The translations under genes and the position numbers were made by a program. DNA of 56,948 nucleotides, filler included, from Streblomastix strix (lineage: Eukaryota): NCBI GenBank assembly GCA_008636045.1. It is 3 parts of 3 records of this genome, joined end to end, with 100 filler letters (N's around TTAATTAATTAA, not from the genome) between each part and the next. Parts side by side here need not be neighbours in the genome. Positions count along the whole stretch, not along the records: positions 19,036 to 37,952 come from SNRW01000560.1; 2 more parts are not named here. The stretch is one strand, 5' to 3'. Shown piece after piece: positions 18,936-38,052 of the stretch (the first letter of the stretch is position 1; each line of letters starts with the position of its first letter). The notes under the pieces are model-generated. The model saw nothing but the letters and a program-made list of their open reading frames with translations, made no database searches and was not told where the DNA came from.

Positions 18936-19035
18936 NNNNNNNNNNNNNNNNNNNNNNNNNNNNNNNNNNNNNNNNNNNNTTAATTAATTAANNNNNNNNN
19001 NNNNNNNNNNNNNNNNNNNNNNNNNNNNNNNNNNN
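18936..19035. other. Artificial contig-joining spacer (44 N + TTAATTAATTAA + 44 N)
   Basis: Exact 100-nt spacer with a six-frame stop linker; an identical spacer lies at 37953-38052. Confidence 0.99.
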
Positions 19036-19959
19036 AAACTTTGTTGATATATGGGTCCAGCTAAAATAATTCCGATTTTTTTCAGCTTTTGCGGAATAAT
19101 AAATTAAGATATATAATAATAAATAAAATAAATAACCATTTCAAATTTAATTACATACTATATTCTTTAAACTATTATTTAAAAAAAAATGTAAATTTAA
19201 TTAAATCCTAATTAGACTTGAAGTAAAATAAAAAGTTAATACTTAACTTTTATATATGCACTTAATTCATTTCTAAACATTCATGAAAATTTTAATTTGT
19301 AAATCAGAATTTTAAAAAATTCTACTTTTAAGTTTTAAAAATTATTTCAATTCATTTGGTAAATAAAAACAAAGAATAATGTCAATAATTTTGATTGTAA
19401 AATATAATAAATTCTATCTCATTATTGAACATACATAATATTCAACATAAAATTAATATAATTACGAAATTATTAAATAAAATTTTAAAAATAAATAATG
19501 AAAAATACAAATAGAATAGAAAATATTTTAAAAATAATCTGATGCACTTTAATATTGTGTAAAATTTTTCACCTTCATAAATTGTCTAATTAAATGGCAA
19601 AGTTACAAAATTTGAGTTTTTCATATTTTTGCAATCTATGATGTATATTTCATGTTTTGGTGAAAAATTTCAAAGATACTAAAATGAAAACTATCGAGAA
19701 AGCTTAGTTTCTTTTTATAACAAATTGAAAATTGAACTTACTGAATATTAATACACATATGTAGTAATTGAATTTATCATCGTTGATATAAGAAAAAATA
19801 ATAAAATAAATGAATATGGAGCAATTTCAAATGAAGATTATGTTGTTTTTTAACAACGTAAATTTTTAATGCATCACAATTTTGCAGCATTTAGGTTATA
19901 TTTTAAATAAGTATAATATTTTATGCATATATGAAATTTTATTACAGAATATAATATTG

Positions 19960-20440
19960 AATTTAGTTATAGAAGCTTGAATGATCTACACTCGATCAGT
20001 TTCAGAATCAGTTTTATTTATTCTTCTGCTTTTTATTCCTAGAACTTCCTCAAACTCTCTTGGGGCGATAGAATCTATATCAGAATCATTCTCTAATTCA
20101 TTATGTTTCCGGAAATGAGGCAATTATCCTTCGCTGAAGATTTACTCATCGCTAGAAGCATGAATTTCAGATGATTAGTCTTCATCAACCGAAAAAGACG
20201 CTTGTGTGCCATTATATTCAGTATCGTTGTCGGAAGCTGCGTCTATCGCAGTAACAAACTGTTCGAATGAAAATGTCGGTCTTGCACAGAAGTCTGGTAA
20301 TTAATCGTTATCATCCTCGTCATTTGAGTTGTCATCGACCTAATTGTTCCGATTCTGCAGTCTAACTGTCATGGTGCTCGAGTAGAAACGGACGCGACGG
20401 TTAATGTTAGCTAATCCATAGAAACAGGCACTCAATACTC
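19960..20440 (-). pseudogene. Acidic low-complexity ORF fragment of unknown origin
   Basis: About 150 open table-6 codons rich in D/E/S, with raised GC and a TGA just upstream. Confidence 0.35.
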
Positions 20441-22613
20441 AATAAACAATGCTAGTTTCCATTAAACATTCTACGTTTGCTGCATAATCATTTTATTGGT
20501 TATATTATTTAATCGAAGAATTATAATATTATCATTTTGACAATAATGCAATGAAAAAAAAATTACATAATTATCAAACAATTTCGCTCTTTTTATTTTG
20601 AAAATAAATAATAGAATATTAAAAAAAAAGAATAATAATTTAAAAAAAATCAGTTTCAAAAAAATCTTAGAATATTGCATGAGAACTAAGCAGAATAAAT
20701 AAATAGCATACATACATTTAATTTTATTTATAGCGAAGAATAAGTCAATCATTCAAATTTTGAAGATTTCATACATTCAATTTATTCTGCTTATATACGA
20801 TCATTAAATTATATTTATCATTTAATATTCTTCTTTTTCATATTATTATTAGGTCAATCAAACTATATACTTCTTTAATTTCTACAATTGTAATTGCCCG
20901 AATTGGTGAGATTGGTAGAAATTGGTGATGTAGCTGATTCACTTCTAATGGACCAAAATATTAAATTTGAAGAAGGCCTATCTAACTTCAAAGCAGATAG
21001 AGGAACAAATAGAAATAATAATATAGTTAAATTATTTCTTAGGCTATTAGTTTTGTATTAATACCATAAAAAATTATTTTTCTAAATTGTTTTGCTTCAT
21101 TATTTTTGTATTGTTTTAATTTAAATAAAATTTTTTATATATATAATTTTTATGTTTCTGGTATTAATTATCATGAGTTATAATATTTCTATAAAGAAAT
21201 TTAGTTTTCTGATGAATTGAATTGAATATTGATCCAAATTAATGCTGTGCATTTATATAATTCTTTAAAAATTATTTTTTGCAATTTTCATTTGAGACTC
21301 AGAGACTGTCTTTAATTATTATAAATGATTTATTTAATTCTGCTATGAAAGTGGTATCTAAATAAACAAAATATGAATTAATATTTGATTCAATTTATCT
21401 AAGAAAAGATAGCAAAAATGTCCCATTTTTTAAAGTATTAAAATCGATCTCAGTTTAAATTTTATATCCAAAAGATTAAAATCTATCATACATCTATACT
21501 TATCTATAATATAAGCAAAATTTTTAAATATTTACATATATGATAATAAATTCACACTTTATTTCTAAAAAATATAAATTATGCTTAAATATGCTGCAAA
21601 AATCGCTTAAAAATGCTGTTAAATCGTTGTAAAGCACAGCACATTAAATTCTCGATGAAAATTAAATATTTTTTTTAATTTTATAACGATTCATCAAATA
21701 ATTCTATAACATATATTATTTTCATCAATAATGACACTAAGTACATATGTAGGCGGGGAGTAAATTGAGCACTAAAAATCATCTTTTTTAAAAAAAACTA
21801 ATAATTCAGACTAATAAACAATAATAACGATACATTTTAAAGAATAAAATTTATAATTTGTTTAATTGATAAGAATTATTAACTCAAATAATAAAATAAT
21901 TGCTTATTGACGGACAAAAATTTTGGCTTTTTTTTACAAATTTATTTATTGGACTATTTTAATAATAGCCCTTATAATTTTGCTCAGCGCACGTTTAGCG
22001 CTCTTAAAAGCGTTTTTGTCCAACACTATTGGTATTATAAAAAAGTTCTTGAAATTTGTACTCAAAGTTATTACCGGAATGCTTTAAACAGATATTGATT
22101 TTTTTGACAGTAAATATTCAAAACAAACATAATGTATAAGCTTCGAACAAATATCTAGTGCCTTTCTATTTAATAATATGTTAGATAGCCAGATCAAGTG
22201 ATATCTGAATTTTCAGAAGCACTAGAAACTTCAACCACTTTATTAGTCACCAAAAATTGGATTTTTCTACTTTTAAATACTTTAAAGGTTATATTCCAAA
22301 TTTTTTATTAAAAATACTATTTGATAATAAGACAAATAAGTAGCATAGAATGAAGAAGTTTGTGGTAAGTTCAAAATCGTATTTATTATAATCAATTTAT
22401 CCGCGATTTTGAACTTTTTTCGTCAATTTGCGAAAATCCCCAGAGCGGAAGCATATACATTAGTATGGTTCCTTTAATCATAGGAAAATGAACAAAATGA
22501 TGAAATAGACAAAGCGTGAATAAATTGATTATAATAAATATTGTTTTGAACTTACGGCAAACTTTCTTCATGAGCAATGCTAATTAATTATTAAAAATAA
22601 ATTAATGAGGGTT

Positions 22614-22820
22614 TCACTCAGTGATGCTTAATTAATCTTTGCTTTTAAGATATGCATCAGATATACGTATTATATCACGTATACTACTTAACATAGCATA
22701 TAGATTTTATACTAATTTTTTCTTTGTATCAATTTCTTTAATTTCATTATTAAGTTGTTAGCATTATTATTGTAATTTTGGTTCTATCTCTTTAAAATAT
22801 TCATACATTTATTTATCCAT
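22614..22820 (-). CDS. Viral ORFan, 68-aa coiled-coil
   Basis: ATG to TGA open in table 6 (MDKQMYEYFKEIEPKL...), caaaATG context. Confidence 0.65.
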
Positions 22821-22853
22821 TTTGAATAAATTACAATAAAAAAAATAATAATA

Positions 22854-23471
22854 TCAATATAAATCAAAATCATTGTATTCTTATTACTATTCTTCTTGGG
22901 GTTATTCTTGAATGATTTATTAAGGTTCCTGTTAAATTTATTATGGCTCTTCCATTTCAACTATCTATTTTGATTATTTGTTTCGTTTTGCTTTCAATTT
23001 ATATTTCTCTATTTGTTTGACAGCATCTTAATGTTATTGTTTAATAAATGAATTTTCAGTTCTCAACCTGATTAATTCTTCTAAATCAAGTTGAGGATTA
23101 GTGTAATTAATTTATGAAGTTTTTTATATTTTTACTACACTTTTTCTAATTTACTTCTTTAATGGTTTTTCTCGTACTTCGCTTATGGAATCATCACTTT
23201 CATTTTATTCATCTTATTGTTCTTAAGATATAAAATCTTCATCATCAATTTATTTTTAAGATGTTTTTTAAACATTTTTCTTTGGAGCAACCCCTCCTTT
23301 AGCTTATAACAGTAATTTATTCTACTATGTTTAAGTTAATTTTTTAAGTATCTTTTTCCTTTCTTCGAATGCTTTAATTTCCTTATGAATTTGGATGACA
23401 TATCCGTTGTCAAAGTATTCAATATTTGTTCCTTTCTCTATTAAATTCTTCAATGCGTGTTGTAAGTCCAT
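22854..23471 (-). CDS. Viral ORFan, 205 aa, K/E/Q-rich
   Basis: Open table-6 frame MDLQHALKNL...EYNDFDLY*. Confidence 0.8.
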
Positions 23472-23494
23472 TTGAATAATTTTAAATTAGGAAA

Positions 23495-24244
23495 ATGATA
23501 AAGGGCATAGAAAGAAACTAAATTCGCATGTCAGAATCCAAAAAATAAATGTCTGAGATTAAACATAAAGAATTAACGGATGAAGATAAAATAAGATTGC
23601 AATTGATCGATGAAGCTATCAGTAGGATTAAATCAATGCCAGCAGTCGATGAAACGACTAAAACCGAAGGTTCTGGCATAAATGCTAAACCTAAAGAAAA
23701 TGAAACATAAACCTAAAATGAAATTATTACATCAACGCATGAATAATTAATCCTTACAGAATAAAAAATTACTAAATATATGAGTAAATATAATAAAGAT
23801 AAATATAAACAAGTAGATAGAACAACTGCATAAGTTGAACCAGATGAAGTAGTTATAAATACTTATCTTTCTCATCCAAATCTCGCTGTAATGAAATTCA
23901 TCATAGAATGCTTATGGAAGACAGTAACTACAAGAAAAAGAGGAGATGATTTCATACTTTCATCAGAAAATTTTATTAAACTTTGGCCATTAATTACTTA
24001 AGAAAATGAAGATGATATTGAAATAGTATTAGAAGAACCATTGATGCAATCACATTCATGCATAGGTAAATTATATAAAAAGAAAGATTTGATTCGTGTG
24101 ATGGATGTATTAATTAAAAACGTTTGTATATCAGTTATTGATAATGTACTTTTTAACTCTATTGAGAAATTATATAGAATCAACAAGGATTTCGTTCGTT
24201 TATCTGATGCTCCTACATCAGAGATTACCAAAGATGATTTTTGA
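23495..24244 (+). CDS. Viral ORFan, ~231-249 aa (alternative ATG at 23549)
   Basis: Open table-6 frame that includes the track ORF 24041-24244 as its C-terminus. Confidence 0.8.
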
Positions 24245-24300
24245 TAATTATTTTAGATGTCTAATTTTTTACTATTTAATTATTTTTATTTATTACATAA

Positions 24301-24739
24301 ATGTTTTCACAATCCGAAATCGTTAGAGGAAAATTGCTCGAGAAACCTTAAAATATCGCAAAGGAAATTAACGTTGAACCAAATTATAAATGTGGTGATG
24401 ATTTCTATTAACGAACAGTAAATTAATAGAATAAACCATACTTTAAATTATTGAAACGTTATGGAAATAATCAATGGAATCCATAAACGGTTTATATTAT
24501 GATTGATAAAAAAAAATAATGAACATATTGAAGAAACAATTAAATAGTATTCTCAACAGATGAAAGAACTTAGTGATAGAATTATACGGTATTCAATACG
24601 TAACTTTACTGAAGCTGAAGCAACTAAATTTTATGAAATGAAACATGCCATTAAATAAATGTAAGAACAAACAAAATACAATAAGTACTGTTAATGCGGA
24701 GTTAAAAATGAAGTCAATTGTATATAATACTACGTTTGA
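24301..24739 (+). pseudogene. Viral ORFan with a frameshift in the poly-A run near 24510
   Basis: MFSQSEIVRGKLLEKP... continues as NEHIEETIKQYSQQM... in another frame after an A9 run. Confidence 0.55.
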
Positions 24740-24792
24740 TGACTGAGCATTTATGCCCGCCAACGATGTTGGTTATTATTTTTGCAATAAAA

Positions 24793-25563
24793 ATGGATCA
24801 ATAATTAAGTGATTTGGATATGATTGATGAAGATGAATAATCTATGTAATAAGAACAGGCAGTTAAATTAATACAATAGTAGGAATAGTAATAAAAATAG
24901 ATAAATGATAGGAATAATTTATTTTAAATCATTGATTAAGAAATAATAAAGTATTTTAATTATTTGAGTTAATTCTTTAAAAAAATCAAAGTTGATTTAA
25001 CTAATTTTGTAACATTAAGTATTGATTAATTTATAACAGGAATCAAGACATTTTTATATCCAATCTTTGCAAGTAAAATTGTTAAATAAGGTGGAACAAA
25101 TAACTAAATTCTATTAGCTAATGGAGATGTGATTGATAAGGATTAATTAGCGTATGAACCAATTGAAAATGCACGTTATTCAGCAATTGCACTGGGAATG
25201 TATGAGTAACGTATATGGGGTACATTAACAACATAAAATAGAAGAGTATTTATTTCACTGTAAATAACTCATTCGGATCAAAATACAGTATGTTAATCAG
25301 GATATACTTTATTCTCAATCGTTGATAATGCTATCAAACCCAAATTCAGTGGAACACCAACTAACATACCATTATATGCTGTTATGTTTGCGTATAAAAG
25401 ATGGAGTTATCCAATATTATGGAATGGTGCTATTCCTATTGATTGTTTTATTAATCCTAATGGTAATGTTATAATAAATACAATGTGTTAGTTAGGTTTA
25501 ACTGAAGATTTTTGTTTACAGATATGTGATTCATATGCTATTCATAATTAGTCGGCTAATTGA
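24793..25563 (+). CDS. Short fibre/spike-like protein, 256 aa
   Basis: Open frame with an N-terminal coiled coil, then FVTLSIDQFITGIKTF and KIVKQGGTNNQILLANG. Both motifs recur in the long fibre. The C-terminus is beta-rich. Confidence 0.75.
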
Positions 25564-25727
25564 CATATTTAAAAATAAACAAATGGACGAATTCAGTGAA
25601 ACTATCATCTATTCTCTGGAATAATTGAACATTAATTGGCATTCTATCTTTAAACAATTTGGGAGGCAGCGATCAAATATGCATGCTAATCAAAGATATG
25701 TAAATGAAAAATAATTATTTTTGCTTT

Positions 25728-27671
25728 TCAACCAGCATTAATCGTACTTCCGCCAAGCTCACCAATAACGTCAATATTTAACACTTATGGATCAGGATTA
25801 TTATCAAATGTAATTCGCATAAATGTATCACATAGATAATGCATCATTGGAGTAATAAACGCTTTAGTTGGATCAGGATAACTTCTCATAGCAATAAATT
25901 CTTTTAAATCATATTAGTTCTAATCTTTATTTATCTCTGAACTATCTAATACTCATTTAGTCAAATTACCATGTAAAATAACTTATATATTTGTTCTTGC
26001 ACCTAATTTTGAAGAATTATAGCCTCGCATAAATGAATCATCAGTAGCTAATTTCTATGCAAGCATTTATTTGTAAAGATATAGTGTTTTAGTAATTTTT
26101 GTCCCTTCAAATAATGTAGATACAGCAAATACATTTACATCTCCACTTCCATAGAAATTATCTTTATCAGAGCAGTTTATATTTTCAAATGTAAGTGAAT
26201 GATATAGATCTGATGGAGCACTAACGACATCTTAATCAACGAAATAATCAAACATTAATCCAATAACGGTTTGTGTTAATGCTTCATATGGTTATGGAAC
26301 TACATGTCGTTAATCAATAATCAAATCAAAATCATAAAATAATATAGGATAGAACCATGTTGGATACTATGGCATGGCAAACGTCATAAATAGTGATTTA
26401 ATATTAGAGAATGACATAATACTTTACATAACACCACTTGTATCAGTAAAACCACTAAATGGGAAATTTGATGATTAAGATCTAAATACTTAGGTAGGGA
26501 AATTGACTATTCTTTACTATCTAATCATGTTAACTATTGCAACTTCATTTTCAACATTAAAACATATGTTCTATATCTCTAATTTTTCAAATTTTGCATT
26601 ATTAATTTAACTAATACTGTTCTATGGTACCCTATCAGCAGCTGCAGCATTTTACGTATTGACTATTCTTACGTTAAATTTTTTATAACTAAATAATCCT
26701 TCTGCAGTAGGCTCCTTTAATAGATAAACTGTGTCTGGTTTCTCAGGTGGAATCATGTGATAAGCCAAGTGTTAGTTTCTTACCGTATCTTATTTGTTAA
26801 GTCAAACTACCTTCAAATCCTACAGGTAATCTTATATCCAAAGTTATAGAAAAAGTGAAGCGTTATTCCTAGTAAGAACAGGAAATGAGTTAAAGATTGG
26901 ATTTAATTAATTAAGATCAAGAACACTACTAAATGTAATATCAAATGGAATTTTTAAATGCTATGGAGTTTTATCACATCTTCTATCAATATCACATAGA
27001 GGTATATCAATAAATATTCGACAATGACATTTATCATTAGTGATACTTTCTAGAGGAGAAACACTAACGCTATTGCTAGTACACAAATCACTCAAGGAAT
27101 TAGAACTAATTGCAGCTTATTCTCTAGCATATATTGAAGTTCCCCATAAAGCAGTGGCATCACGCATCAATTGAAATTGGTGAAATGGTCCACACGCAGT
27201 GGAGAATCCAAGCCAAATACGTAATCGATCAGAATTATCAAATCCTTCAGCTTATTTTCCATAATACTTTTATGCGCCTTATGTCATATCTACTGTTACA
27301 TTAGTTTATGAATCTACTTTACCATTGAAGTTAATTTTCTTATTTAAATCATCTTCTTCCTCATTTGATTCATTTAATTATATCGCTAATGTATCTTTAG
27401 GTATGGCAATTGTCCAATTCACTTAGCATGTTTATACCATTGAACAAGTGGCTAATCCCCTTGCTCCTAGTGGTGCTCTAGTATATTTAACTCCACTAGA
27501 TGTTAGTTCATTTACTGGTTAATCAGAGAATTATTGCTTGGAAATTGAAAGTGATCCTGGATGAATAGTTAATGTTTTTAATATATCACCTAATTACATA
27601 TATCCAGCAACATAATCAGAGTGTTACATTTTTTACAAACTGGCTAGATAATCACTAGATTTGAATGACAT
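25728..27671 (-). CDS. Probable major capsid protein (double jelly-roll), 647 codons, with two premature TGA
   Basis: Single frame from ATG 27671 to TGA 25728, with in-frame TGA at 26802-26804 and 25953-25955. Beta-strand-rich (RIWLGFSTACGPFHQFQL, NIKSLFMTF, FDLIIDQRHV). Size and context fit a Maverick MCP; the fold is inferred. Confidence 0.75.
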
Positions 27672-27738
27672 TTCAATAAAACAAAAATAACTGTACGCTG
27701 ATGACGATAATGATAATAAATTTTTATATTAAATCAAA

Positions 27739-27948
27739 ATGGGTTTCTTCTCTGGAATAGCGAATTTTGGATCGAAAATTTTAGGCGGTGTTAAGAAAGC
27801 AGCGTAATGGGTAGCACCAGCATTACATAAAGTTTTATCTACTATCTGCGGTCCGGTAGGAATGATTTATCCTGGAATTGGTGGCGCATTAGGTGCAGGA
27901 GCTAATCTCGCAGGTGCAGTTGATCGATTGGTAAATAAACGTAATTGA
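27739..27948 (+). CDS. 69-aa Gly/Ala-rich amphipathic peptide, candidate membrane-penetration or core protein
   Basis: MGFFSGIANFGSKILGGVKKAAQWVAPALHKVLSTICGPVGMIYPGIGGALGAGANLAGAVDRLVNKRN*. caaaATG context; divergent from the MCP. Confidence 0.85.
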
Positions 27949-27968
27949 CGTAACTTATCTTTATAAAA

Positions 27969-30092
27969 ATGAACAGCTCATTATCGTAACAATAAATCCG
28001 AACAGTTAGATAGTTAATCACTAACGATATTGCTTACTATATTCAATATCAGAAACGATCTAGTTCAAGTAATGGAATGATATCAAATGATGAGTATCAA
28101 TTATTCATAGATAATAACAATGCATTAGTCTACGCCGCTAACAATTAAATCGTCGATGATATGACATCAGATTACGCATTAAAAATAGAACCAAATGGAC
28201 TATTAACAATAAAGAATTTGAAGGTGATTAATTTTGATTTTGTTGCATAGATTAATTAGTTGATTAATTAAGTGAATTTACTATAACAATCAATTGGAAC
28301 AACAGAATAGGATACCACTGATATAAAAAATGATATTGATACAATTAATTAAGAATTATCACGATAAATTCATTTCAGAGGATATTATTTATTGAATACA
28401 GATATATAAAATTTACATAATTCCGCTAATGGTGATTTTGCTTTTAGTGCTGAAAGTGGGACAGTTTGGATGTTTGATGCATCTTGGTATAATAGTGGAG
28501 ATATTGTTCCAGATTAAGTAACACCAGCTAGTGATGCAACACCATTATCTGATGGTACAGCAACTGCAGGAATTAGTACAGAATATTCACGTGGCGATCA
28601 TGTTCATCCATTAAATATAACAACTACTATTCCATCATAGGATAGTGCAAGTGGATCTGTTGGTACAAGCAATTATTATGCTAGAAACGATCATTCACAT
28701 ACAATTAATATTGAGACTAATGCTTCAAATATTCCAATCGCTAATGGTGTTGGTGCTAATGGAACATCAGCTTTTTATGCTAGACAAGATCACGTTCATC
28801 CATAGTAATTAACTTATGATGGTAATGTTACAGCAACTAAGTTCATTAAAACTGGCGGGACAGTTAATGATATATTGCTAGCTGATGGTTCTACTAAATA
28901 ACAATATTATGCAAGCAAATTATATCAAGCTGTTGATTAATCTTAATATATTAAATTATGTAAGTTTAATGCTTTAAGTTTTTCTACTGATATTTCAATT
29001 GAATTCAAAGTAGCTACTAGAAGTGGATTTGGATAAATATAATTTAATTAACATTGGACTTAAGATTTAGGGAGAAATAACTATTAGTATAAATTTATTC
29101 CAACATTAGCTTCTGGTTTTAATAGTGCATGGATCTTATATTTTGGAACTGATTTAGATAGATATGGAGAATTATGGAGTCCAATAGATAGCTATTCTTA
29201 TAATACTGTTATAAATTAAACAGATATAAGCGCTTTTTAGGGTAATATTACTGAAATATTAACCACTGACGCACAACAAGCATTACCTACAGGGTAAAGT
29301 AGCATATAACAATTATTTCTAAACATATATAATAGTTTATAAGTTAATCCAACTGGTAATAATTATAATTAAGGCATAATAATATCACGGTCTGTTAATA
29401 ATTATAGTGGAATATTTCTTGGTTGTGATCCTCTATCAACTACAGGACCATTAGCAGATTAATGGAGTATAGTAAATGCAAATAATGGTGAGTTAAGGAT
29501 AGGAGTTAATGATTAAATTACTGCGGTTAATTAAGGACTAATGATATCAGCTGATGGATAAGCTTTAACATTTAACGGTAACTAATTCGTTGATTTAACA
29601 ACAGATTAAGCATTAGCAGGAATAAAAACATTCCATAAATTAGTATAAGTAATTCCATCAGCTAATGGTACATTTAACGAAGGGATAAGAATAAGTAGAC
29701 ATTCAACAAATTAATGGAGTAATATATAATTTGGTAGCGGTCCAAATTCGAATAGTGGTAAGATTGATAACTAATGGCTGGTAGGATCAACTGGAAATAA
29801 TGGTGCAAATCCTCTTGGTTTTGTCATCATAAAAGCAGGATAAGAAGGTTAGGCTGATAGAGGATTATAAATATCTGCTGATGGAAACGCATTATCTTTC
29901 AATGATACTGTAACAGCAGGAAATGGTGCAAATAACGGAGCCACAGATAGGTCAGTTAATTATCCTGCATGCAATCAAATCTTATGGGGTGCAAATAGTC
30001 TTAGAACAGATGGTGGTTTCTATAGTAATGGAACTATTATATTCTGGAGAGCCCATGCGTTATAATTTGATCCGTACTACTAAGGATAATGA
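27969..30092 (+). CDS. Long phage-tail-fibre-like protein, 707 aa
   Basis: Fully open table-6 frame. Three repeats YSRGDHVHP/YARNDHSHT/YARQDHVHP; FIKTGGTVNDILLADGS; two repeated domains (NQGIIISR/NEGIRISR ... GLxISADG). Confidence 0.85.
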
Positions 30093-30111
30093 GGATTATT
30101 TTTGAAATTAA

Positions 30112-30570
30112 ATGGAAAAACAGTTAACGTAACCGTTCAAACAATTATTCAATGAATTAATCAAATCTCACTTTAATGATATCGATTCAATTAAAGCTAC
30201 AATTGAAGCATTATAAAATTTGTTAAAGAATGATATAATAGAATCAATCCATCTATTAATCTAAGAATTAATGAGAATCAATAAAATGTTTACTAATCAA
30301 TAGCAATAATTATAAAATATAAAGAAGATGGTAGATGAAGAAGACTATAAAAATAAGTTATTTAATGAATAGGATAAGTACTTCAAAAATAAATATCTAT
30401 TAATCAAAAAGTCATTAGATCTAAACAATTAACCATAACAAATAAAGAAGTACATTATCTCTGATGCTAGTGAAGAAGAAAAATAGATTTACAATTAATT
30501 TGTGAATGATGAATAATACAGTAACTTCGTCAATTATTATCAGCTTAATTTAAAATAATAAGATTGCTGA
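30112..30570 (+). CDS. Viral ORFan, 152 aa, helical
   Basis: ATG to TGA open in table 6. Confidence 0.75.
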
Positions 30571-30778
30571 TATATTATATATATTTGATTATCTCTTCAA
30601 TTTTATCTTAGATTGGTTCAACGAAAGTATAATGTTATTTGAATTATTCATACAATTATTTTTCTTCAATTGATAGATCATTTATCTCAATTAATGCTTC
30701 AAATATTTTGAAAATCTCATAGTCAGACGCATTATACTTATCACCAATGCTTCTTGCTAAACTATACAATTATTCCAT
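30530..30778 (-). CDS. Viral ORFan, ~82 aa
   Basis: MEQLYSLARSIGDKYNASDYEIFKIFEAL... The 3' end overlaps the convergent ORF, so the true end is uncertain. Confidence 0.5.
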
Positions 30779-30788
30779 TACATTTAAT

Positions 30789-31181
30789 TCAAACAATTTT
30801 TTTTTATGGCAAATTTAACATTTTAAGATAAAGGATGTATCTCCAATGAGTAGCTAATTCCAAATCTTTATTTGATATTGCTTCATTCAGAAATGTTTCG
30901 ATTTATTCAACAAAAAATTACGACCAATGTATGCTAGGTTAATTCTTATCCATTTTTCTTTTGTAAAAGTATTGTATAATGTAAATCGTTATATTTAATG
31001 GGACCAATACTATATTAAAATAACTCCATAATGTTTTTACAATATTAACAGTGTCCCAGAATTTCTCCGGTATGGATACTTATATGATTGATGTTATAAA
31101 ATTAACGCCATAGAACATGTAATTCATTATCCCCATGATTAACGATAGCAATTTCATTGCCGCCGTAGGTAGTATGGTCAT
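30789..31181 (-). CDS. Small viral membrane protein (2 predicted TM helices), 130 aa
   Basis: LLSLIMGIMNYMFYGVNFITSII and LWSYFNIVLVPLNITIYIIQYFY, followed by KRK. Confidence 0.7.
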
Positions 31182-31197
31182 TTTATTATTTTTGAAA

Positions 31198-32217
31198 ATT
31201 ATATTATAAGAATTATAAGATATAACATTTACTAATCAGGATCTATTGAACGAATATAAAACTAAGCCATTAACGAAGAATTCATTGTTCCTGATTAATG
31301 TAAATCATTATATTGTGGGAGCTGTTGGAAGTGGTAAAACAACATTAATGTGCAAGCTAATTGTGATATATAAAAAAATCATTAATCCATTCATATAATA
31401 CTTCTCGAATTATGGTGCAGATGAAACTAAGGCATTAAACCTAAACAGTAAGAACATTAAATTAACAAATATGACTTATGGAGAAGCAATGACATTTCTA
31501 CCTGAATTTGATGAGATAAAATACTCTACTAAAGTGACGTATACATGGTATAAGATGAATGAATAAAAATAATCATACACTAGCGATTTCATTAAACGAA
31601 TGGAAGAGTAAATCCTATAAAATAATGAGATAAAAAAGAATGAAAAACTTAATGATTATCTTAATAGAATTGCTAAACTATTCAAATAAAAAGTAATTGA
31701 AACCATTAATACATACAGTTAATCAACCAAGATATTGAGATTTGAAATTCCTGCATTAATTCAAAACGTTAGTTACCAAAAGAAATACAAAATTACTGAT
31801 GATGCATAAAATGCAGTTATTAAAATAATGAAAATACCTATATTAGAAAAAGCTTAATTACTCAATACATTAATGCTCTTGGATGATATTGGATCTAATG
31901 CAGACATCTAACGATTCAGTTCATAATTATCTAAAACAGTTACCCATCTCATTAGTGATTCTCGTCATTCAAAAAATACTATTTTCTTTATAGCTTAACT
32001 TCCAACTTATTTGTTTAAGACAGCTATGATATTAACCCATGTAATTTGCTTAGGTATAAACATCGGTGAGAGTGATCTTAAACAGGTTTATGAGGAAAAT
32101 TCCATATAAAATTTAAATTTTGATGAATTCATGATATTATAAAGGTCATTAAAGAAATATGACTTCATCATTCTGAACAAATGGATTGGTTAGTTCTAAA
32201 TTTTGAAAAATAAATGA
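31198..32217 (+). CDS. A32/FtsK-HerA-type DNA packaging ATPase (~339 aa; no ATG before Walker A)
   Basis: Walker A YIVGAVGSGKT, Walker B LMLLDD, arginine-finger/Gln motif DSRHSKNTIFFIAQ (Q encoded by TAA). Confidence 0.92.
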
Positions 32218-35200
32218 TCAATTAAATGTGAAATCTTTTGAAGAAAGGCCGAAAATAAATGGACAACATGATTAATTCTCTAGCACTGGCATTTTCGTAT
32301 GGATTCCCGTGATTCTATTTTTTTCGATAGATAAATAACTTATCTAATGATTCTTCTAGCCCAATCTCATATTAGTGCATTTCGTTATTTTTCCTTCATT
32401 AATGCAATCGATTATCTATGCTTTAGTGATTTTGTTAGTCTTCTAATTAACTCCTTTTAGTTTTATTTTTGAATTTCCATTGTAATTTGTTTCAATCATA
32501 TAATTTTTAGGAGCTAATGCCACCATTGATATTCCTTATCTTTCGATCGATAATCCAAGGATTTTATTTTCATCATATACATCGCCTCTAATCGTGGGAA
32601 AGTAATACTTAGCATTATCGTTATAAAAATCTCGATCACTAATCACAGCTTTAAATTACTAAGGAAAATCTTCATTAGGATTACCATTAATCGCCCAATA
32701 AGCTGAATCAGTATCTCCTTCAATAAAATGTATTTTATTCATATCTAAGCATTTATACATGAAATTACATATGAAATTTAGATACCAATATTTAACGTTA
32801 TCCAATACAAAAAAAAGCTACTTATAAAGGTGTTTTATAGTTACAGTGTTCTGGATTCATTTATACAATATAACTGTCTTCAGATATCTTTTGTTCATCC
32901 ATGAAGGCGTTAGATCTAATTGCTCTTTCTGTCTATTTCTTATTCATTATTTTTACTTCATGATATTTCTCAGTGTTCATTCCATCACTACCATAAGAAC
33001 TATTCATAACAATCTTAAAGAATTATTCCTATCCATTATTCTCATCTAATTTTGCTTCTATTCTAATTTTAGTAAATTCCTTAATAAATGAATTGAATTA
33101 ATCATGTTAATTGAATAGCACTTTCTATTTTGCATCATCTATAATAAAATGGCAATCATCAATCAAGAACCATTGGTAATATGAGCTAAATGCCATGAAT
33201 TCTCCCATCGTTGATGTAAGATTAGTTAGTTTACGTTATTTTTGATCAGAGCTAACATTATTGTTTTTCATATGATTATACATATAACTACCGATAGTTC
33301 GTTCATCTGTTGTGAATTCATAATTGCTTAGGATTGGTGGAAAATTAATGATATCGTTAATGTAATTCTAATCAATGTGGCCTTTAACTTCTGCTAGGAA
33401 TTATTGACCATCAGATGTAAATCTCTTTTTAATATTAATTATTCGTAATATTGTTTATTTGGAATGGTCATTGTTAGCAGAGCTCAAACCTACGGTTTCT
33501 CCCATAATCTTACCTGTTTATGATCCATACATATACATTTTTCCACCTGTACACTTAATAAATTAATGTGGTTCTGATGACATAACACTAGGATATAATG
33601 AATTGAAATCAACACCAACTACATGAGTAATTCTATGATCAGTTGTCAGAACTGTTACCTTCTTATTTTACTTATCATACCATAATCGTTTTATAAAATC
33701 AATTCCTGATCTATTGACTCGATGCATTACATTTGATAATCCACCTGCGATCCATTTTCTGATTAAATGATATACATCAATATCTGTTAGATTAGTTGGT
33801 GATCATCTTATCATACAATATTTATGTAATTATATGAACAATTTACTTATATTTTTATCTTTATCCGAGCAGAAGCAATTACAGTATAAACAACAGGGCT
33901 AAACATTATCTTTTGAATGACTCTTTGAATTATCGATTCTATCTAATGTTGGCTTATTATTCCATGTAAATTTACATCCACATATTTTGCAGTTAGATTC
34001 ATTGAATAATCGTTTGAAATATTCATAATCACTATCTTTTATACTATTTTTTATATCAGTTTTTTTTATATTTATCTTATTGAATATATCCTTTCACTTT
34101 GCTCTACAAATATTGCTCAGTTAAATGAAATTTCTACGATTAATCAGTAAAATTAGGATATATACCATTAATGTCAAAATCTTCATACGCTTTGGCATAT
34201 TTGATAGCATTAGAGCATGCAGCCATACTCATGAAACTGAACATATCAATCTTATATTAAAATTATAAGCTAATCAATGTCATTAGTGGGTTAACCATTA
34301 CATACGTATCTTATTCATCAAAGAATTGTAGATAATCTCATCTATTTTTAAATCGTTTTGCTTCATCTAGATAAATCTAATAATCCTTCTAACTAATTTT
34401 GGTTTTCTTTAATGATGAGTTGAAATCTTCCATTGAAAATGGCTCTGATTTACTTAGTACTTCATTAACGTTATCAATGTTGAAAAATTCATAGGGAAAT
34501 AAGCCTTATTTATCGTCGTAACCATCGCAAAAATCTTTTGCTGCTTACTTTAATTCCGTAGGTTAAAGATACGTTAACATATCAACAAGTTTCATCTTTA
34601 AATTCAATTTTTTATGATGCACAATTACCAATTTAACTGTTGATGGGCTACCAGTATAATTACTAATTGTCCAATCTTTGCATTACATATACGATATGAT
34701 AAATAATAAATCAAATCTTGAGCTATTGAACCCAACAATTGGCACTTCAATTGAATATGGAATTTTCTCATCAATTGTCCCAGCTGCTGTTAAATATTAA
34801 TTATCAGCATTAACTTATTCTGCTTCTTTAAACAATTAATTTAACCATTAAACTATGAAATCGTTCCCATCCTATTAGCTAAAGAAGATTTTCTTAATAT
34901 CTTATTTGTTACGGATAGTTGATGCAACTGATAGGGGAAATAATTCATACATTTAATAACTTGATTTAACAAATTTTTTATTAACGATTTTAGGAACAGT
35001 TTCAAGATCATACGTGATGAAATATTATGTTGGTTTATATTCATTTTCTCTTCCATTAGCTAATAGATATTGATAAGTTTTATTCTGCATGATATGTGGA
35101 CAATATGGTTTTTATACATAATCCAGTTTAACTTTCTTAATTATTTTTCCACCATTATTCTCACATTTAATATTGTGTTTTTCATAATCTCTTGAGTAAT

Positions 35201-36856
35201 TTTTATCTTTAGGATCGAACGCTTTTGAATTACAGTGTGGGCAAAATTACAATCCCATTAATGCTTATTTATTAGCTATGGCAAATGCATGCGCTATCTT
35301 ATTATTTTCCCATATCGATTCAACAACTAATATATCAATTGTCTTAGATTATTATTGCACGATTGTTTCATTTTAATTAATTTCATTATAATCGTTGATT
35401 TGTTCACATTAATGCATAATCTACAATCCTCTATAATAATTCTTATGTTCATTATCGTAGTAGTAAATGTCATGGTTAATTTTTAACTTTTATGATACAA
35501 TTTACGCATATTTAGTTATATCTAATCCATCAAATACTTTCAATAAATCAGTCATTTATCTACTCTTTGAATCGAATGGTAGCTCTAATACTTAAACTAA
35601 TAGTTACTTGCTAATGCTAATAATTTCATCAGGAAAATAACGTTTTTCCTTCGAATCAGAATGTAATGCTTTTGCTATTGCTTCCATATAGCAGTTGTTA
35701 TTATTTCCAGTATTTTATATATAACATTTTTGCGACCATTACAATGAAAATCGATCAATTCTTTCATACTAGCTCCAACAATTTATGGTTATAGGTTATA
35801 CGTTTTGATTGGCATGGAATAGATAGCTATATATAGTTATCTTGTGCTATCTAATGTGAAATTCTATTTATTAATTATATCAGCTTTAATGTATTGCTAA
35901 TACTCTTCAATGTCGTCTTAATTTTATATGACTTTAGGAGAATGTTCTTATATACGTGTATCTCTAGCTAAAATATATCCATAATCAACTTAAACTTAAT
36001 CATTCTAATCATGTTTATATTCTTCATAAAAGATTCTAAAATTAAATTGTATCTTGAACGCTTAATGGTGTTGTGCATCATAAATTTCATTAACGTACAT
36101 CTCTATACCGGATAATGATTAGATAACATTATTATAATGTAATTGACTTAATTATCCCCGCTGCTCATCCATTTAATTTATTATACGTTCACGATTGAAG
36201 CCTGTTTTTGCGCCATCAACTGTATCAATAAATTACTCCATTTTCTCTGGTTGAAAATACAATATAACGCCTGCATCATTATCTATTTAATTAACGTCTT
36301 TTCCTTTATACTGATTAATTTTATCTTTAATCTCTTTATTTTATTAAGCAATAATTTGGTATTGTAGATTAGCTTCCTATTCTTCTTCCATTATTCTTCT
36401 GGCTTATTCCTATTCTTCTATGATATAATTAGTCCAGAAATCGTTAGCTTATTATTACTCTTATTATTAACGATATTCCTATAAATCTTATTCATAATAA
36501 TTAGAATGATAGTGTGTTAAATCTTAATGTAATTATCAATTTTATTCATCTATTTCATAATAGAAGATATCAGCTTATTTCAGCAATTATTCTCTACGAT
36601 ATTCTTATAAATCTTATTCATATTGATACTATTTGAAATGCAATCTCTGATTGATATTCAATGAATTATATTAATGTATTTATTTTAGATGTGATTTCAA
36701 TTCACTATAGTTACTTCTTCCTGATTTCTTATAATCAATCTTGTTTAAATATTCAATGAGTTATTGTTTAAGCAAATATATTTTTAATGATTCATTAACG
36801 TTTTTGTTGTTGATTTTGAGCAATTTAACGATCTCCGCTTTCCTTAGTTAAACCAT
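32218..36856 (-). pseudogene. polB: Protein-primed family B DNA polymerase (pPolB) with C2HC zinc finger and HNH-like insertion; several frameshifts and TGAs
   Basis: ExoI YDLET, ExoII GFNSSRFD, GLFPYE, PolA VDFNSLYPS, PolB KIVMNSSYG, PolC EGDTDS, KLKGV; CPHC...HNIKC; TLDRIDNSKSH..DNV..CC..CN. Confidence 0.95.
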
Positions 36857-36903
36857 TTGTTAAAAATAAAAAACAAATATAGAACAAAAACAATTTAGAC
36901 GTC

Positions 36904-37952
36904 TCATTAAAATTATATCTCTAACAATAAATTATTATACATGTCCATATATTACATAGGTATTTTTCTTCCAAAGTTATCATATAATGTAAACACTAAC
37001 GTTTTGTTCTATCCTACTAAGCATTATTGACTCATCATATTCTATCCTCATAGTACTGGCGCTTCAATTAAATTTTGTTTAAAGCATACATTTGAGAACC
37101 CATTACCACCAACTGATTACATAGTTATTCCTTATAATTAATTAGATACGCAAATTATTAGCATTTATGGATACTCTAGAAAATTCCCTATATATGAACA
37201 GAATATTGGTAAATCAACTTCTAAGCTTTCATTATCATGTTTAGTTTAATAGAACCATACTTCTAGATCAATTTACTTAATAGCTGATGCTAAATTAACA
37301 AATTAATTAGCGCTATTCTCATTCAATCCATCATATAGATCTTATCCACCAACTAATTGAACATATAGATTTGGTGACACTATTATACGATTAGCGAACC
37401 AATAAGTGTTATTTTAATAACAGTAATCAGTCACAACTAATGGGATAAATTAACCATAGTAATTTGTTCTTCCAACTGCTGTATAAATATCTTACCATTC
37501 TCCTATAGATAATGCAGGTAATGAATTGATAATTCTAACTGGAAATGTATTAATATTATTAATGATTTATTACATTGTTTATTGTTATACGTTAATTGGT
37601 TAAGCATCAGATGTGGTAAATGTTCCATTAGCATTTATATCAACTTACTTACCAAATAAGTATCTTATTGATAGGCCATTCCCTTATGTAAAAGATTTTG
37701 GTTCAATTGATGTAATATAATTATTTTATGTTGGGCAATATAATCGTACTAATCCAATCATTCGATATAACTCATTAACTGTGGAATCTAAGATCCAGTA
37801 GTGATAAAGAAATGCATCGATCCTAAGATTAATATAATTGATTGCTGAATTCACTATATCTTATCCATAATTCTAGTTTAATGAGAACATATTATTTTAT
37901 AATTTTTATACATGCTCGTTAATTGCATTATTAAAGCATATTGCCCCACTGT
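36904..37952 (-). CDS. Probable minor capsid (penton) protein, 5'-truncated by the contig end, frameshifted near 37075
   Basis: About 290 open beta-rich codons. The C-terminal VSVTLYDNFGRKIP...LLLEI resembles the terminal strands of Polinton/virophage pentons. Confidence 0.6.
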
Positions 37953-38052
37953 NNNNNNNNNNNNNNNNNNNNNNNNNNNNNNNNNNNNNNNNNNNNTTAA
38001 TTAATTAANNNNNNNNNNNNNNNNNNNNNNNNNNNNNNNNNNNNNNNNNNNN
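37953..38052. other. Artificial contig-joining spacer
   Basis: Same structure as 18936-19035. The contig lengths 18935/18917/18896 look size-sorted, so there is no synteny across spacers. Confidence 0.99.

Follow-up and report, generated by a model that had tools for sequence, protein, structure and literature searches.

Does the short reading frame lying head-to-head with a probable capsid gene in the genome of Streblomastix strix encode a protein of its own, and what would such a protein do for the element that carries it? The window, i.e., the whole stretch of DNA analyzed here (56,948 nucleotides), joins separate contigs, as blocks of N spacers occupy positions 18936-19035 and 37953-38052, and the element in question lies between these gaps on a contig of 18,917 nt (19036-37952). 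The features at the center of the question are the following:

25728-27671, minus strand: probable major capsid protein (MCP) gene, ~647 codons, with in-frame TGA at 26802-26804 and 25953-25955
27672-27738, no strand: AT-rich spacer of 67 nt between two divergent ATGs, with 1-bp indels among copies
27739-27948, plus strand: ORF of a small amphipathic protein, 69 aa, read with NCBI table 6 (TAA = Gln)
27742-27783, plus strand: residues 2-15 of the small protein, its best-conserved segment, in which residues 3-12 align with residues 40-49 of adenovirus pre-VI
Product of the small ORF: helix 3-43, turn around Pro45 and helix 45-67, as predicted in an AlphaFold2 model

The interval 27739-27948 was confirmed as a genuine plus-strand ORF of 69 aa under NCBI table 6, and both the N-terminus quoted in the initial annotation and GGALGAGANLAG are found in it. 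As that annotation stated, the standard code misses the ORF through a single TAA, which table 6 reads as Gln23; Gln occupies position 23 in 53 of the 60 aligned relatives. The ORF starts 67 nt from the MCP ATG (27671, other strand), and no second copy of the small gene was found within the window. The product was also correctly described as free of acids until the C-terminus, its first acidic residue being Asp62, and the net charge is +6 for the whole protein and +4 over residues 2-36. The cationic amphipathic helix proposed for the N-terminus withstood the hydrophobic-moment check, as residues 3-20 scored 0.58 against 0.23 ± 0.11 in 20,000 shuffles (p = 0.0014), and residues 2-36 scored 0.47 (p printed as 0.0000) with a periodicity peak at 100 degrees. 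The AlphaFold2 model, made from 60 close sequences, was of modest confidence (pLDDT 66.5, pTM 0.29) and yielded no match in a Foldseek search. A transmembrane reading was dropped on the Kyte-Doolittle maxima, the best 19-mer reaching 1.29 in this protein and 0.8-1.45 across nine proteins of the family, below a usual transmembrane helix.

The nature of the element can be judged from the remaining features of the contig:

24739-25563, plus strand: 274-aa ORF, no Pfam match above cut-off
27969-30092, plus strand: fibre/adhesin-like protein, 707 aa, with a coiled-coil-like start and HVHP-type repeats, its function assigned by eye
30931-32217, plus strand: P-loop ATPase, matching several weak P-loop families, all below cut-off
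32218-36535, minus strand: fragmented protein-primed PolB region, PF03175 matching 32720-33727
37048-37890, minus strand: 280-aa ORF, no Pfam match above cut-off

We infer that the element is a relic Polinton-like virus integrated in the genome of this oxymonad, a protist of the termite gut. The protein-primed PolB expected of such a virus was detected (PF03175, E = 3.9e-12), and the window copy is called a relic because its MCP and polymerase are broken. The ATPase is, from its context, a probable genome-packaging ATPase, and either the 280-aa or the 274-aa ORF might be a minor capsid (penton) or second fibre protein. The contig ends at 37952, just beyond the start of the ORF at 37048-37890, and the right end of the element is missing. 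Neither an integrase nor terminal inverted repeats were found in 19036-37952, a contig cut at one end, and no protease or integrase family was detected in the 71 ORFs/segments scanned in this decayed and truncated element. Near the presumed left end, there is an imperfect inverted repeat (22334-22589; 54-nt arms with 85% complementarity, 101 nt apart), which could be a terminal or origin-like structure. The 707-aa fibre-like protein had no Pfam match above cut-off; P0210, its relative in the database, matches the N-terminal part but not the middle, a pattern that suggests a modular make-up of the receptor-binding regions.

The neighbor of the small ORF is probably the MCP gene, on the basis of two automatic UniRef names ("Major capsid protein" on 2 of the 120 listed homologues), the gene context and the accessible part of Bellas et al. 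(2023; PMC10120064). The gene has 284 homologues, and 119 of the 120 listed were labelled S. strix, the remaining one being that of the window itself. The double jelly-roll fold expected of such an MCP did not emerge from our model, which was poor (pLDDT 46.7) and for which Foldseek returned no match at E ≤ 0.001 and VIA a best Z of 3.1. The neighboring genes need code 6 as well, as 36 TAA/TAG are read as Gln in the 572 translated MCP codons. Endogenous viruses of S. strix that use a TAA/TAG = Gln code and bear MCPs of the "Metamonada group" have been described (Bellas et al., 2023); those elements agree with the present one in both element type and Gln code, and the small gene is not mentioned in the accessible part of that paper.

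A single-sequence search with the small protein recovered 73 homologue clusters at 63-97% identity, which shows that the ORF is conserved among copies. The clusters were labelled S. strix (69, including the closest relatives), JGI (3) and Logan (1). A profile search with the family gave 190 matches, the best 120 of which were listed. Among the 204 relatives examined, 158 were stand-alone proteins of 62-75 aa starting with Met, and four subfamilies (71, 43, 22 and 15 members) take in 151 of them, their medoids being 97, 65, 62 and 49% identical to the window copy. The hydrophobic moment was 0.4 or higher in 154 of the 158 members and 0.60-0.71 in five distant relatives. Between subfamilies, identity was highest over residues 2-15 (0.85), and the near-invariant residues of the N-terminus include Asn9, Gly11, Ser12 and Lys13. 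Identity was lowest over residues 48-67 (0.39), and the Gly zipper read into the Gly-rich half by the initial annotation was rejected, this half being the least conserved part of the protein. Differences that add an acid to residues 2-36 numbered 0 of 58 between the four subfamily medoids versus 25 of 277 among the rare differences within subfamilies, implying that active lineages keep the helix acid-free and integrated copies decay. The 552 rare differences had a mean BLOSUM score of -0.64, with acids in the helix among them, and the Cys37 and Tyr44 of the window copy are themselves rare residues in the family.

Selection was assessed on contigs of four DNA runs aligned on the ORF (from at most three studies, one of which may be the source of the window). 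Among the best-supported 40 of the 62 differences, 32 were synonymous versus 25.5% expected (binomial p = 8e-13), and the other two plus-strand frames had 5 and 2 synonymous among the same 40. Among the 12 listed of the 17 indels, the only ones within the ORF were a deletion of 3 bp and an insertion into the last codon, both confined to a single contig each. We conclude that the small gene is genuine and that purifying selection acts on it in the viral lineages. These data bear on the reading in which there is no free protein: the ORF would then be exon 1 of the fibre-like gene that follows it, or else the antisense shadow of an MCP extended at its N-terminus. Some gene models (P0051, P0073, P0205 and P0210) do fuse the ORF to the fibre-like gene or the antisense MCP, and on the other strand the MCP frame runs uninterrupted through the ORF with the same wobble positions, so that 28 of the 40 variants are synonymous there too. 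However, the fused models differ in their join point, and the predominance of stand-alone proteins among the relatives speaks for a free product, as does a distant relative that is a free ORF with different neighbors (see below). The MCP antisense frame in particular is disfavored because no in-frame ATG lies upstream of 27671 and the 1-bp indels, which break the MCP frame, cluster in the spacer. Altogether, we find it scarcely credible that the ORF has no product of its own.

The conservation of the small gene beside the MCP gene, named as a check in the initial annotation, was recovered in other copies: 22 of 200 locus tags adjoin an MCP tag, with ~0.9 expected. In the first set, 12 of 69 small-gene tags were consecutive with one of 119 MCP tags (contigs of equal length), the null giving a mean of 0.30 and a maximum of 4 in 20,000 draws. 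A further set, which includes the most divergent subfamily, gave 10 of 131 with 0.55 expected. Locus tags are a proxy for linkage and carry no orientation, and these counts are lower bounds because only cluster representatives were used and 120 of the 284 MCP matches were listed. When the two genes shared a contig, they were immediate neighbors in 12 of 13 cases, and a single aligned contig spans the MCP start and the entire small ORF. The two genes likely share a promoter region in the 67-nt spacer.

Of 1.84 billion representatives searched, 85 matched the family, including distant members of ~30-40% identity from ENA, JGI and Logan, and hhalign aligned two distant members to the family across about 70 columns with a probability of 97%. 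One distant relative, of 74 aa, is encoded on L003, a 2.1-kb metagenome contig that uses the standard code, 286 nt downstream of the end of an MCP-like ORF. This ORF end scored 11.9 bits against the MCP profile, the best of 2,000 shuffles reaching 8.8, and hhalign of the MCP-like piece gave an E-value of 0.0006 but a probability of only 30%. On L003, these two genes share a strand and are separated by a single short gene, and thus the head-to-head layout is not universal. The linkage between the small gene and the probable MCP gene holds across the four subfamilies and this distant standard-code relative. Three consecutive genes of L003 start in a TAAATG context (positions 471, 737 and 978), a feature of poxvirus late genes.

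Other distant relatives (P0287/P0298 and P0292) carry a C-terminal extension of 25-40 aa with a common short DSPRI motif. Two contigs were matched by P0287, of which L001 was dismissed as a chance match to an unrelated tailed-phage-like contig, and the match on L002 spans 14 residues. No relative was found in viral contigs scanned with A1, A2, A5, P0292, P0295 and the MCP piece of L003, nor in metagenome contigs scanned with the profile A1, and tblastn of P0292 against phages gave tape-measure matches only (E 6-8). Pfam holds no family for the small protein, as judged from the ORF, the alignment members and 14 further proteins scanned, and the database entries of the family are hypothetical proteins. 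It is well supported that the capsid module of oxymonad-type Polinton-like viruses encodes a real and new protein family.

What the protein resembles was examined against the PDB. The initial annotation had likened it to adenovirus protein VI and the nodavirus gamma peptide; both did emerge as matches of family profiles, at E-values that are borderline or non-significant and do not establish homology to either. Single-sequence searches with the small protein gave nothing relevant and did not find adenovirus VI, and the first profile, made of close members, matched a methyltransferase-like chain and a tape measure protein only. A diverse profile gave 16 matches (E 0.3-7) with designed helical bundles ahead of natural proteins, and these included residues 40-51 of adenovirus pre-VI (E 3.4), residues 22-39 of bluetongue VP5 and T7 gp7.3. 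With the profile restricted to its first 28 columns, a post hoc trimming made after pre-VI had been seen at E 3.4, the lytic helix of pre-VI ranked first among 177,635 PDB sequences (E 0.021 over 10 residues), level with a phage tape measure protein (E 0.022). The 10 matches of this N-terminal profile comprised five of pre-VI, three antimicrobial peptides (E 0.42-8.8), the tape measure protein and Kbp. A subfamily-balanced, full-length profile had the gamma peptide as its best natural match (residues 31-60, E 0.15), and all six natural proteins among its nine matches were virion proteins (gamma, tape measure, T7 gp7.3 and three of pre-VI). Pre-VI scored E 2-7 with full-length profiles, and its HMMER match never reached beyond query residues 3-14. 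There was no match to MCPVI, which we take to be the Pfam name of the adenovirus protein VI family, at E ≤ 1 or E ≤ 10 for the ORF, members of A1, A4 and A6 and 14 proteins, in scans whose filters drop most matches above E 0.1.

The likeness to protein VI is concentrated in pre-VI residues 40-49, of which 7 of 10 are identical to residues 3-12 of the window copy (human adenovirus chains) and 9 of 10 to those of the subfamily medoid P0313 (chain 7rd1_0). Among the aligned residues are Leu40 and Gly48, and mutants at these positions show less membrane lysis according to the accessible parts of PMC8310329 and PMC4113798. In part of supplement file 2 of PMC11071296, all seven occurrences of the five-letter core of the motif were in adenovirus VI proteins, and the same supplement prints VI just before hexon, so that the gene stands beside the major capsid gene in both systems. 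By eye, the register pairing Phe3 with Leu40 brings the C-terminal helix opposite residues ~83-106 of pre-VI, where several positions are similar. On the other hand, there is no significant full-length match between the two proteins. Adenovirus VI has ~250 aa with a propeptide, a PPxY motif and a basic C-terminal protease cofactor, none of which occurs in the 68-69 aa of the small protein; it is processed by the viral cysteine protease, whereas no protease was found in the contig studied here, which holds a decayed and incomplete element. The small protein likely works like protein VI, a statement on mode of action and not on membership in the VI family.

The nodavirus gamma peptide (PDB 1f8v_D) shares the succession of helix, Pro-Gly turn and helix over 30 columns, residues 31-60 (E 0.15). 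It is a cleavage product of an RNA virus capsid protein, and as it comes from an unrelated lineage, its likeness to the small protein is best read as convergence. Since two unrelated lytic peptides match different halves of the small protein, convergence is at least as likely as common descent. We regard as unlikely the homology reading, in which adenovirus-type membrane penetration was inherited from Polinton-like viruses of protists. Mavirus offers a further comparison, described in a paper that we take to be by Born (2018). Its MCP tail has been proposed to contain an amphipathic helix (PMC6048507, accessible part).

Closer in genomic setting is the "Cupiennin" of adintoviruses/Polintons, a small amphipathic protein proposed to be membrane-active (Starrett et al., 2021; PMC8502044), and the idea of such membrane-active proteins is thus already in print under the names Macc, pVI and "Cupiennin." Macc is a hypothetical, polyphyletic class with VI as its canonical member (Buck et al., 2024; PMC11071296, accessible part). 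Like Cupiennin/Macc, the protein studied here is small and basic, bears an amphipathic helix and has its gene within the capsid module of a Polinton-type element, and one "Cupiennin" printed in the PMC11071296 supplement stands directly before Hexon. The four printed examples, compared by eye, have ~140-150 aa and differ from the small protein in having a leader, Gly-rich sequence ahead of the helix and a tail of basic residues; "Cupiennin" was absent among the 120 listed of the 190 profile-search matches.

Taking these lines together, we consider it reasonably probable, judging from sequence, that the small protein is a virion-packaged membrane-penetration protein that acts like VI but starts at the lytic helix, with no propeptide. 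The shared 67-nt spacer would drive expression of both this protein and the MCP, and the capsid would enclose the small protein and shield its hydrophobic face. Uptake and partial uncoating would set it free, the Lys-rich face would bind anionic lipids, and the face of Phe, Ile, Leu and Trp would insert into and rupture the vacuolar or endosomal membrane. As the protein begins at the helix itself, no maturation protease would be needed, and because it differs from VI in this respect, control would lie in capsid shielding and not in cleavage. Beyond a conserved amphipathic protein linked to the capsid gene, each of these steps is one that we infer.

Amphipathic helices can also act as cement in capsids or anchor proteins to membranes without lysis. 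The protein may work inside the capsid in a non-lytic way, as cement, as scaffold or as a core protein in contact with DNA, its hydrophobic face packed against the MCP and its basic face against the DNA. The linkage and selection data would be the same, the near-invariant Asn9, Gly11, Ser12 and Lys13 look more like a protein-protein contact than a lipid-facing peptide, and the pVI helix itself also binds hexon (PMC8310329, accessible part), which implies that lytic and capsid-binding roles can coexist. However, acids are kept out of residues 2-36 in the functional lineages, and lytic or entry peptides were the closest natural matches in the PDB. A purely structural role therefore seems rather unlikely to us.

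A late membrane role, as a viroporin/egress lysis factor or as an anchor recruiting assembly, possibly through a myristoylated Gly2, was judged distinctly improbable. Such a role would suit the likely co-expression with the MCP and the helix-turn-helix layout of the model, and in Arf-family GTPases a myristoylated amphipathic helix at the N-terminus provides an anchor that does not lyse the membrane. Gly2, for which the initial annotation had suggested myristoylation, is indeed common, being present in 140 of the 158 members; of these, 137 have Phe3, and residue 6 is Gly in 114 and Lys in 11. The consensus calls for Gly2, a permissive residue 3 and a Ser/Thr-type residue 6, which Phe3 and Gly/Lys6 fit poorly, and the distant relative P0298 starts with M-L-G and so lacks Gly2. 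Myristoylation is therefore doubtful, and no segment of transmembrane strength is present to serve a viroporin.

The initial annotation further raised an antibacterial role, and the protein could be pictured as an antimicrobial peptide, viral or host-domesticated, directed against gut or ectosymbiotic bacteria. Three of the 10 matches of the N-terminal profile were antimicrobial peptides, as noted above, and single members match frog antimicrobial families of Pfam below cut-off. Nevertheless, neither a signal peptide nor a propeptide was seen in the sequence, and killing of bacteria by a synthetic peptide need not reflect the natural role. The gene moves together with the capsid gene, adjoining it in nearly all same-contig cases, and integrated copies gather random changes, including acids in the helix and, in the window copy, the rare Cys37 and Tyr44. 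An antibacterial role is unlikely for these reasons, and we give the antimicrobial reading very little credence.

No description of the small-protein family was found in the literature searched on Streblomastix and polinton viruses, a body that lies largely outside subscription papers and the data deposited by Bellas et al. The Buck naming key lists two unsubmitted Streblomastix-like MELD contigs, which may carry an annotated relative (PMC11071296, accessible part). For membrane crossing by Polinton-like viruses of protists, lipases and SLATT pores have been proposed (PMC12220804, accessible part). The present family is a concrete entry candidate for an element of the Metamonada type and is short enough for synthesis. 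Were the family homologous to protein VI, the adenovirus entry peptide would go back to viruses of protists; were it convergent, it would add one more solution of this kind that arose independently. The family also offers, as a side benefit, a library of more than 150 natural variants of a cationic amphipathic peptide.

The host region of the window contains pairs of repeats with 79-91% identity, two of them inverted (2120-2954/10455-11289, 1304-2142/14348-15242 and 5084-5475/15751-16154), which are unrelated to the small ORF.
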